Positions 41,801 to 44,800 of a stretch of 64,000 nt of DNA are shown here, one piece after another. The position numbers are program-made. Every line of letters begins with the position of its first letter. Within the stretch, counting starts at the first letter, position 1. Where the stretch lies: assembly GCF_054482595.1 (NCBI RefSeq), contig NZ_CM137008.1; one strand, 5' to 3'.

Positions 41801-44800
41801 AAGTATTGCCCTGCATTCTGTGGGGCGGGGTGGGTTGGTATGAAAAGAAGGATACCCATAGGTATTTAAAAAGTAAATACCCATGGGTAACTTTTTGCGG
41901 TGTCTTAACTGGTGACTAGTTGTTTGGTGAGCTATGATGCGTTTTGTGCTTTCTTTTTACGGATTTCTTCGTAGATCATATTGTAATACTGTTTTTTCTC
42001 TTCAAGAGTTTTTAATAAGTTATCCGCTTCACTTTCTGGCAGTTCGTCTAAGAGATCTAAAAAAATACGTTGTCGTGGCGTTAGAACCCTTGTTTCATAA
42101 CTGGAGGCTGTGTTCGTTGATGATGAAACGATACCATCCATCCATCCCCGGGGTAACCCAAAGGACTCTTCGATAATCTCCACCATATCATCAGCGATCC
42201 GTTTTTTTCCCTTTTTCCCCTCTGGGTACAACATTCTTGATACATAAGAAGGCTCGCGCCCGATCTTTCTGGCCACGTTAACCGCTTTACCATCGCATTT
42301 CTCATCACGAATTTTGATGAGTTGCTGTCGTCTAAATTCATATTTGTCCATAGGTAAATAATAGATGCGATTACCGCAAGGTAAACAACCTGTGGGTATT
42401 GACTTTTGTTTACCTGTGGGTATTCTTTACTGTGTTTACTAAGGAGTAGCTATGGAAGAATTAAGAATATTTCTCAATTCTCTTTCGTCAGATGAACAGC
42501 GTATGTTTGCATGCGAGTGTGGTACCAGCATCGGTTATCTAAGAAAGGCATTGAGTAAAGGTCAAGTGTTAGGGGCATCGTTATGCGTCCTTATTGAGCG
42601 AGCCAGTAATGGTGAAGTTACACGTCAGCAACTAAGGCCTTTTGATTGGATGAATATTTGGCCCGAGCTGGAAGATACCAAAACGTTAACACAACCACTT
42701 TCTAGGAGCTTGATTCATGAAAATCAAGCATGAACACATCCGCATGGCGATGAATGCCTGGGCGCATCCGGACGGTGAAAAAGTTCCGGCAGCTGAAATA
42801 ACCAGGGCTTATTTTGAACTGGGTATGACGTTCCCAGAACTGTATGACGACAGCCATCCGGAAGCCCTGGCTCGCAATACCCAGAAAATTTTCCGCTGGG
42901 TAGAGAAAGACACCCCTGATGCAGTTGAAAAAATTCAGGCGTTGTTACCAGCGATCGAAAAGGCAATGCCACCTTTGCTGGTGGCCAGAATGCGCAGCCA
43001 CAGTTCAGCTTATTTTCGGGAGCTGGTGGAGACGCGGGAGCGACTGGTGAGAGACGCTGATGATTTTGTCGCAGTGGCAATCGCCGGTTTCAATCAGATG
43101 AACCGTGGTGGCCCGGCAGGAAATGCTGTGGCAGTACATTGACTGACAATAGCCATATCGAATCGCTTCCGGCAACTCGTGAGTAAAAAGATTCGGTATC
43201 AGAAGAGGTGAGTATGGCTAACGCCTGGCTCAGATTATGGCATGACATGCCAAATGACCCTAAGTGGCGAACAATTGCCAGGGTGTCAGGGCAGCCAATT
43301 GCAACAGTGATGGCAGTGTATATCCACCTCCTGGTGAGCGCGTCACGAAATGTCACGCGAGGTCACATTGATGTCACGACAGAAGATTTGGCAAGTGCGC
43401 TCGACGTGACAGAAGAGGTAATTGATTCAATTTTGCAGACGATGCAGGGGCGGGTACTTGATGGTGATTTAATCACTGGATGGGAAAAACGCCAGGTGCT
43501 TAAAGAGGACAACGGCAATATTTCGCAAACCGCAAAATCTCCTGCAGAGCGCAAGAGGGCGCAGCGAGAGAGGGAAAGAAAGCGGGAACAAAATGGCGAT
43601 TGTCACGGCGCGTCACGAAATGTCACGCACATGTCACGACGAGTCACGACAGATAAAGATACAGATAAAGATACAGATCAAGAAGATCAAAACACTATGG
43701 TCCATGGCGTAAAAAACGCCACGAACCAGGCAGGGGATGTTCAGACCGTCAATCTTGGTCAGCCAGCAGGCACGACACCGGAAGCCGATTCAGCGTATGC
43801 GCTGAAAGCCGATTCGGGCGCTGTGCAGCAGGTGATGACCGCAAGGCTGGAGCAATCACACCAACTGCAGCAGCCCGAAGCCGATTCCGCCATTCAGCGG
43901 GAAGCCGATTCCGCCATTCAGCGGGAAGCCGATCGGGTAGTCCCGGAAAACACCGGGCAGTCTGTGGGACGAGTGGATTATCCGGATGTGTTCGAACAGG
44001 TCTGGCGGGAGTACCCGTTGCGTGCCGGAGCAAACCCGAAGAAATCCGCTTTCAGTGCCTGGAAGGCCAGATTACGCGAGGGGGTGCCACCAGAGGCCAT
44101 GCTGGATGGCGTGAGGCGTTACGCAAGATACTTGGCGGCTACCGGGAAAACGGGAACGGAATTTGTTCAGCGAGCGACGACGTTTTTTGGACCGGACCGG
44201 AATTTTGAGAACCCCTGGTTGCTCCCGGTAAGCGGCACGAACAACCAGCGTTGTGTGAATCATATTTCTGAACCGGATAACGAAATTCCGCCGGGCTTCA
44301 GGGGGTAAGTGTTAATTTCTGGTCATGAGGTAATTTTCAGGAGGGCTTGTGGCAAAAGTTTTTACACAAGAAGAGCGGGAAAAAATTAAAGGACAGGTTG
44401 TTGAACTCGTACGCCAGAGTGGGCGTGAGACGTTACGGCAACTGGAAGTCAAGACAGGTGCGACAAGATATCTGATGAGCGTTCTCGCAAGAGAGCTGGT
44501 TGCCAGCGGCGATGTATACAACTCTGGTTACGGGTTATTCCCGTCTGAACAGGCGCGTAAGGACTGGCAAAATGCCCGTAAAAAGCTCTCAAGGGCAAAG
44601 CTGAAGAAACCATCTGCGGTTGATCCGGACCTTATCTGGTCATTACCAGACGGAGAAATACGCCGCTACGACAGGCGCCTGAATATAATCTGTCGCGAGT
44701 GCCGGAAGAGCGAAGCTATGCAGCGTGTACTGGCTTTCTATCAGGGTAATTTTCAGGAGGCGGTACTGTAAGTGAAATTAGCTATCAGGCTTCAATTGCC

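Follow-up and report, generated by a model that had tools for sequence, protein, structure and literature searches.

The window analysed here is a 64,000-nucleotide stretch of Escherichia coli DNA (NCBI RefSeq assembly GCF_054482595.1, contig NZ_CM137008.1), and the subject of this study is a pair of small genes, a cro-position gene and ydaT, in the immunity region of a lambdoid prophage that adjoins tRNA-Ser/mtfA (according to the annotation of the best-matching genome). Two overlapping rightward open reading frames (ORFs), of 93 and 141 aa, were found where an initial annotation had located them, as the first rightward genes after OR: they lie just beyond a 100-bp divergent promoter/operator region, opposite which there is a leftward gene of 139 aa (Table 1). 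The 93-aa ORF starts with an ATG preceded, 5 nt upstream, by AAGGAG, and overlaps by 17 nt the 141-aa ORF, which has AGGAG 8 nt upstream of its start. It is the first gene in line from PR and is divergent from the repressor gene, which is the position typical of the YdaS family. This type of immunity is common: many complete genomes contain the 1.3-kb immunity region with 100% identity, and 812 of 5,426 complete E. coli genomes have at least 80% of it.

By its sequence, the 141-aa protein is a clear YdaT, of the type encoded by the CP-933P/Sp12 prophage of E. coli O157:H7. It scores 39.6 bits against the Pfam family PF06254 (YdaT; cut-off 21, with 40.9 bits for the YdaT of CP-933P and 44.7 for that of Rac), and it falls into phrog_163, 'CII-like transcriptional activator' (E 7e-46). 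Its closest relative of known structure is the YdaT of E. coli O6 (PDB 3c4r), with ∼98% identity, i.e. about three differing positions (E 2e-91), followed by that of CP-933P/Sp12 (PDB 8bt1; 85% identity, E 1e-80); the YdaT of the K-12 Rac prophage is 33% identical over the full length (E 9e-16). The protein has both hallmarks of the family, a POU-like helix-turn-helix (HTH) domain with Arg60 and a C-terminal tetramer-core helix: residues 50–61 of the recognition helix are identical to those of CP-933P YdaT, including the family-invariant Arg60 as well as Trp61, and of the tetramer-core residues aligned with CP-933P (103, 110, 111, 114, 117, 118 and 121) five are identical and two conservatively changed. 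The same ydaT occupies the cII position in the GenBank-deposited phages Tritos, 640R1 and Evi, and the proteins named 'cII' in Tritos and 640R1 are 98.6% identical to the one studied here.

The product of the cro-position gene is a more distant relative. The initial annotation had noted a resemblance of the pair to ydaS-ydaT of Rac, and this holds well for ydaT; for the 93-aa protein the match with Rac YdaS is a local one of 28 residues. Similarity to the YdaS of CP-933P is more extended, with 36% identity over 78 aa (E 5e-17) and a phmmer E of 1e-10 against the corresponding structures, PDB 8c7k/8co2; the protein also belongs to phrog_35 (E 5e-23). A word-indexed homologue search with the 93-aa protein returned 32 close clusters only and provided by itself no bridge to Rac YdaS. 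The AlphaFold (AF2) model has a predicted local distance difference test (pLDDT) score above 90 for residues 1–60, and when it was compared with the PDB by Foldseek the top matches were again 8co2 and 8c7k, with a target-normalised template modelling (TM) score of 0.73–0.77, followed by the all-alpha Cro of Xfaso-1 (Xylella). Both homology and a shared fold with a characterised YdaS are therefore in evidence, and the close relatives are named in public databases either 'YdaS family helix-turn-helix protein' or 'antirepressor protein Cro'. We regard the 93-aa protein, on sequence and fold, as a diverged YdaS-type Cro, genuinely but weakly similar to YdaS. The final 8 codons of its gene coincide with the 18-bp YdaT-box, described below, and the ydaT start.

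On the other side of the control region, the 139-aa protein was annotated by the NCBI Prokaryotic Genome Annotation Pipeline (PGAP) as 'hypothetical protein'. It was assigned to phrog_5736 ('transcriptional regulator', E 4e-70), shows distant homology to PaaR2, the CP-933P repressor (23% identity over 90 aa, E 9e-9), shares 39% identity with the CI of phage Tritos and has no S24 peptidase domain. Kinship with RacR was considered and discarded, no similarity having been found, and Pfam and PDB sequence searches gave nothing usable, the weak Z-alpha matches obtained (E ∼0.08) being taken as noise. Since 6 nt separate the −10 element of the PRM-like promoter from the repressor ATG, the repressor mRNA is predicted to be leaderless, like those of lambda cI and paaR2.

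The arrangement of promoters and palindromes around this gene is that of a lambdoid immunity region, in which PRM and PR diverge, operators are repeated and another set of them is located at PL. Exact copies of the palindrome TACC-N4-GGTA number four in the whole window, for an expectation of 0.48, and all four fall in the immunity region; in 100 shuffled sequences, a count of four was never reached. Two of them, plus a fifth copy with one mismatch, lie in the cI-cro spacer, over PR and PRM, and two just downstream of the repressor gene. The latter are perfect palindromes (41853–41864, TACCCATAGGTA, and 41878–41889, TACCCATGGGTA) overlapping −35/−10-like hexamers, and when read on the minus strand this segment can be aligned to the PR/OR module with the two operator copies and the two hexamers matched in register. 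Such a layout suggests that the segment is a PL/OL duplicate like the one demonstrated in CP-933P. The two palindromes can also fold together (41853–41889, minus strand) as a hairpin with a 16-bp stem (−24.1 kcal/mol, z −4.9), followed by a T-run, right after the repressor stop codon.

Table 1. Genes and predicted regulatory elements of the immunity region and adjoining replication module (window coordinates)
Feature	Position	Strand	Remarks
Putative PL/OL-like module	41845..41895	−	Directly downstream of repressor gene; hexamers TTTACT/TATCCT
Prophage repressor gene, CI analogue, 139 aa	41932..42351	−	ORF and homology
PRM-like promoter	42358..42385	−	−35 TTTACC 42385..42380; −10 TATTAT 42363..42358
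Predicted OR3 operator	42372-42383		Palindrome TACCGCAAGGTA, overlapping PRM-like promoter
PR-like promoter with predicted operators	42387..42426	+	−35 TTGACT 42399-42404; −10 TATTCT 42421-42426; 16-bp spacer
Predicted OR2 and OR1 operators	42388-42400 and 42412-42424		ACCTGTGGGTATT copies within PR-like promoter
Cro-position gene, 93 aa, all-alpha HTH	42452..42733	+	Distant YdaS/Cro-family member; homology and fold
Predicted −10 TAACGT, extended (TGT before it)	42683..42688	−	P_RE analogue; start predicted near 42676
YdaT-box TTGATTCATGAAAATCAA (TTGATT-N6-AATCAA)	42710..42727	.	Spans ydaT start codon, ATG in spacer; left edge of ydaT mosaic module
ydaT, CII-analogue transcription activator, 141 aa	42717..43142	+	POU-like HTH and C-terminal tetramerisation helix; homology
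O-like replication initiator	43214..44308	+	phrog_3729, E 1e-252; one module with ydaT; start codon per PGAP

The junction between cro and ydaT is marked by an exact YdaT-box, the single occurrence of this sequence in the window. TTGATT-N6-AATCAA is the published operator of CP-933P YdaT (PMC9986795); the 18 bp found here are identical to the OM operator of that prophage and differ by one base from the Rac YdaT-box, which likewise spans the ydaT ATG. No further box, with up to 3 mismatches allowed, was detected between positions 41800 and 43300, a segment that includes the cI-cro intergenic region where Rac YdaT binds, and a box with 1 mismatch at 23032 is at chance level. Binding of the box by the 141-aa protein, and activation of a leftward promoter from it, are what we would predict from the behaviour of the CP-933P and Rac proteins.

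A stringent promoter scan gave no minus-strand promoter near the box, as expected if the promoter depends on an activator; the −10 element predicted for it was placed by comparison. We collected 120 IMG/VR loci containing the right part of the box and the ydaT start, 114 of which had enough flanking sequence. The sequences to the left of the box in these 114 loci form 15 clusters, about nine of them mutually unrelated; all 15 clusters have a TAnnnT hexamer on the minus strand at 20 or 21 nt from the box, preceded by TGn in 7. From the background, TAnnnT is expected at 0.017 per position, and no other two-position window did better than 4 of 15. Given this conserved hexamer, the box centre falls near −42, which is a class-II activator position. 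The CP-933P reporter fragment that responds to YdaT contains such a −10-like element, as judged from the reporter primers, and so does the Rac reporter fragment. Taken together, these data suggest that the conserved hexamer belongs to a box-proximal, activator-dependent leftward promoter. Separately, a terminator-like GC hairpin with a T-tail is present inside ydaT (42968–42985, minus strand), antisense to it, and recalls the OOP RNA of lambda, which overlaps cII; an OOP-like antisense RNA ending at 42985..42968 was not retained as a candidate, no promoter-like site having been seen upstream of the hairpin.

The box is also the place where relatedness between prophages starts. DNA homology of the window with Sp12, phage Tritos and phage vB_EcoS-640R1 begins at the box, and the cro 3′ ends to the left of it are unrelated. 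In Tritos and 640R1 the O proteins are ∼96.5% identical to that of the prophage, but Cro and CI are quite different. The same ydaT, with over 98% identity at the protein level, follows a DicC-like cro, a 108-aa cro and the cro of this prophage, and overall some nine cro 3′ ends, unrelated to one another, were found next to ydaT. The crossover lies at the box, which appears to serve generally as the point of exchange. Some IMG/VR loci (L087, L125 and others) have the CP-933P-like and Rac-like YdaT types each behind the other's typical cro 3′ end, e.g. a CP-933P-like YdaT after Rac-type upstream sequence, or a Rac-like YdaT after a Tritos-type one. As judged from these comparisons, ydaT travels with the replication module and not with cro; it follows that its inheritance is the opposite of the pattern for a cognate toxin-antitoxin pair. 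We lean, with only slightly better than even confidence, towards a broader proposal: across a whole class of lambdoid immunity regions the YdaT-box would be architecturally fixed, serving both as the recombination junction where unrelated cI-cro modules exchange ydaT-replication modules and as the activator site of a box-proximal class-II promoter (box centre near −42, −10 element 20–21 bp off).

From these elements a circuit can be proposed. In the lysogen, the PaaR2-like repressor would bind the TACC-N4-GGTA operators over PR and the duplicated PL, so that cro and ydaT remain silent. Upon infection or derepression, PR would transcribe cro, ydaT and O. The Cro-like protein would occupy the same operators and turn PRM off; tetrameric YdaT, bound to the box that spans the ydaT start codon, would switch on a leftward promoter that is otherwise silent, with its −10 element 21 bp to the left of the box. 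The RNA made from there would run antisense to cro and in the sense direction through the repressor gene, leading to establishment of lysogeny. In lambda, it is CII that promotes establishment of lysogeny, at PRE. That the roles in this prophage are the same as in its homologues, where binding to DNA has been demonstrated for YdaS as well as for YdaT, is inferred by analogy. The best precedent is CP-933P, in which PaaR2, YdaS and YdaT were found by Jurenas et al. to behave as CI, Cro and CII, YdaT activating a leftward P_RE, in a circuit that is bistable (PMC8630535). The structure of this YdaT was solved and its box defined by Prolic-Kalinsek et al. (PMC9986795), and for Rac it was argued by Jobling that YdaS and YdaT are Cro and CII analogues, not toxins (PMC5917428).

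Overall, we estimate at about 0.88 the probability that the pair encodes analogues of Cro and CII, namely a diverged YdaS-type HTH protein and YdaT, in the immunity region of a lambdoid prophage, and is not a dedicated toxin pair. The toxin view has its origin in Rac, where racR is essential in K-12 because ydaS and ydaT are toxic upon RacR depletion, as they are when themselves overexpressed (PMC5700377, PMC5700373); the initial annotation, which described the Rac pair as toxic when derepressed, was right on this point. It further supposed that repressor control of a toxin pair would stabilise the prophage. In that case the main role of the two genes would be to kill or arrest cells losing the repressor, and thereby to select for retention of the repressor and of the prophage. 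The Pfam family names, 'YdaS_toxin' and 'YdaT_toxin', speak for it, as does the fact that overexpressed Rac YdaT causes filamentation and death, independently of other Rac genes (PMC11879457), and that prolonged overexpression of CP-933P YdaS slows growth (PMC8630535). However, both proteins are HTH DNA-binding proteins without a toxin fold, and apart from the two historically named families no toxin family was found for them in Pfam, NCBIfam or PHROGs. According to Wons et al., the YdaT of Rac is a transcription factor that also activates the host rcsA promoter and so strongly perturbs the RcsA/B regulon, an activation of which the CP-933P homologue is incapable (PMC11879457); the CP-933P protein, 85% identical to the one encoded here, is not toxic (PMC8630535). 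Earlier tests of the YdaS/YdaT pair showed no toxin-antitoxin behaviour (PMC5917428, PMC9986795), and joint inheritance of the kind expected of a type II toxin-antitoxin system was not observed, ydaT being combined with many unrelated cro genes (the 15 upstream clusters, with the crossover at the box) and its identical type being carried by GenBank-deposited phages. Finally, loss of the prophage takes away both genes and the repressor together, which leaves no addiction logic, and in Rac YdaT expression is reported to select for cells that escape it by excising the prophage (PMC11879457). The supposition of a stabilising toxin pair is not supported, and we consider it improbable. A growth defect on forced expression of the two proteins would be a side effect of transcription factors and not a toxin function.

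Another possibility is that YdaT would mainly be an autorepressor or roadblock, covering the ribosome-binding site and start codon of its own gene and so limiting rightward transcription into ydaT and the replication genes. The box does cover the Shine–Dalgarno–ATG region of ydaT, and the paper describing the CP-933P structure repeatedly terms YdaT a 'repressor' and puts a transcription start inside the box (PMC9986795). But in reporter assays YdaT activates leftward transcription, both in CP-933P (PMC8630535) and in Rac (PMC11879457), mutation of the Rac box produced no marked change of rightward ydaT expression (PMC11879457), and the conserved −10-like element at class-II distance fits activation. 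A mainly repressive role is, in our opinion, very improbable.

Several points nonetheless weigh against the Cro/CII reading or parts of it. The 93-aa protein scores 25.8 bits with PF15943 (YdaS_toxin), below the cut-off of 30, and aligns with profile positions 30–62 only; by comparison, CP-933P YdaS passes with 46.5 bits and Rac YdaS scores 107.7. The likeness to Rac put forward by the initial annotation is distant for the cro-position gene. The evidence on this exact Cro comes from sequence and model and that on the repressor from sequence, and the assignment of TACC-N4-GGTA as operators is likewise a sequence-based prediction; the hairpin formed by the OL palindromes may also, or instead, be the terminator of the repressor transcript. 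Overexpressed Rac YdaS and YdaT being toxic, some toxicity of the present pair is conceivable by analogy. As for the box-proximal promoter, the published placements of the YdaT-dependent start differ from ours: in CP-933P it is put inside the box, and in Rac the reporter was interpreted as showing activation of a promoter ∼190 bp away (PMC11879457). No mapped start site for the YdaT-dependent promoter was found in the parts of the CP-933P and Rac papers covered here. If our placement is true, P_RE of Rac, of CP-933P and of this prophage starts ∼35 bp to the left of the box, unlike in the published placements, and a −10 element at fixed distance offers a testable refinement of how the CII analogue YdaT activates repressor synthesis.

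The genes around the immunity region complete the picture of a lambdoid prophage. Leftward from the control region are found the repressor gene, ydfC, DicF, dicB, an exonuclease gene and int; rightward, the order is cro-like gene, ydaT, O-like gene, DUF977, hok/sok (hokD), RusA, Q, tRNAs, lysis genes, HK97-type head genes and lambda-type tail genes. The prophage looks full-length and not cryptic, because head and tail genes are present in its counterpart in the complete genome closest to this one (99.5% identity over 24 kb); only part of the prophage falls inside the window. The DicF small RNA (40623–40674, minus strand; Rfam 76.7 bits) and dicB (40260–40448, minus strand) belong with ydfC to the leftward (PL) operon and are cell-division inhibitors. 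DicF, dicB and ydfC would be derepressed along with cro and ydaT and are a more plausible source of derepression toxicity than the regulators. A genuine addiction-type module, a hok/sok type I toxin-antitoxin locus, is present in the early right operon (46264–46589, plus strand; Rfam sok 112 bits, with a hokD-like ORF). The label 'toxin YdaT family protein' given by Pfam and PGAP invites a toxin reading that has been overturned by experiments on close homologues, and calls for caution in annotation.

The O-like gene contains tandem repeats (43601–43683 and 43877–43933). Together with those at 43340–43400 they comprise TGTCACG-type units, three copies of ACAGATAAAGAT and a perfect 24-bp repeat, present 2.4 times, which encodes EADSAIQR; these iteron-like repeats are candidate sites for the origin of the prophage, comparable to the situation in lambda O. 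Four prophage tRNA genes lie between Q and the holin gene (50019–50325, plus strand), specific for Ile, Lys, Thr and Gly according to the annotation of an identical genome. The prophage integrase ORF (36250–37275, minus strand) is intact, with 341 aa; in strain Ecol_881, which otherwise shows 99.5% identity, the annotation gives it a frameshift. Four tRNA hits with identical scores, at 15651, 18060, 19881 and 35044, fall in the chromosomal part of the window, the last being annotated as tRNA-Asn in the matching genome. Since a second tyrosine recombinase gene (∼33900–34880) is found beside the tRNA gene at 35044, the presence of another integrated element just upstream of the prophage is suggested.

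The locus is an already known kind of lambdoid lysis-lysogeny switch, and a protein nearly identical to its YdaT has already been crystallised. Among the systems with which it can be compared, CP-933P/Sp12 is like it in gene order, in the left arm (an ECs_2282-like zinc-binding gene, ydfC, dicB and exonuclease), in having a YdaT that is 85% identical, with the same residues 50–61, and the identical box over the ydaT ATG, in a Cro-like protein that is 36% identical and of the same fold, in a distantly homologous repressor, PaaR2, and in the duplicated PL/OL module. There are differences, however. In CP-933P a toxin-antitoxin pair, paaA2-parE2, is found downstream of the repressor gene and there is none here; the operators are GTTTAGTAA-type repeats instead of TACC-N4-GGTA; cro and ydaT overlap by 4 nt instead of 17; the replication genes are ECs_2276/2275 instead of the O-like gene of phrog_3729; and that prophage is cryptic, whereas the present one looks full-length.

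The immunity region of K-12 Rac (RacR-YdaS-YdaT) has genes in the same positions, a YdaT with 33% identity over its full length and a near-identical box over the ydaT start codon. It departs from the present one in its repressor, to which ours is unrelated, in a YdaS that shares with our Cro-like protein a 28-residue stretch only, and in the toxicity and rcsA activation of its YdaT, which are not seen with the CP-933P type of YdaT, the type found here. Compared with lambda, the repressor differs in being devoid of the RecA-sensitive S24 domain. The likeness comprises divergent PRM and PR that share their operators, a further set of operators at PL, a repressor mRNA predicted to be leaderless, and a tetrameric activator encoded just after cro, with its site at the cro/cII junction and a leftward promoter antisense to cro.

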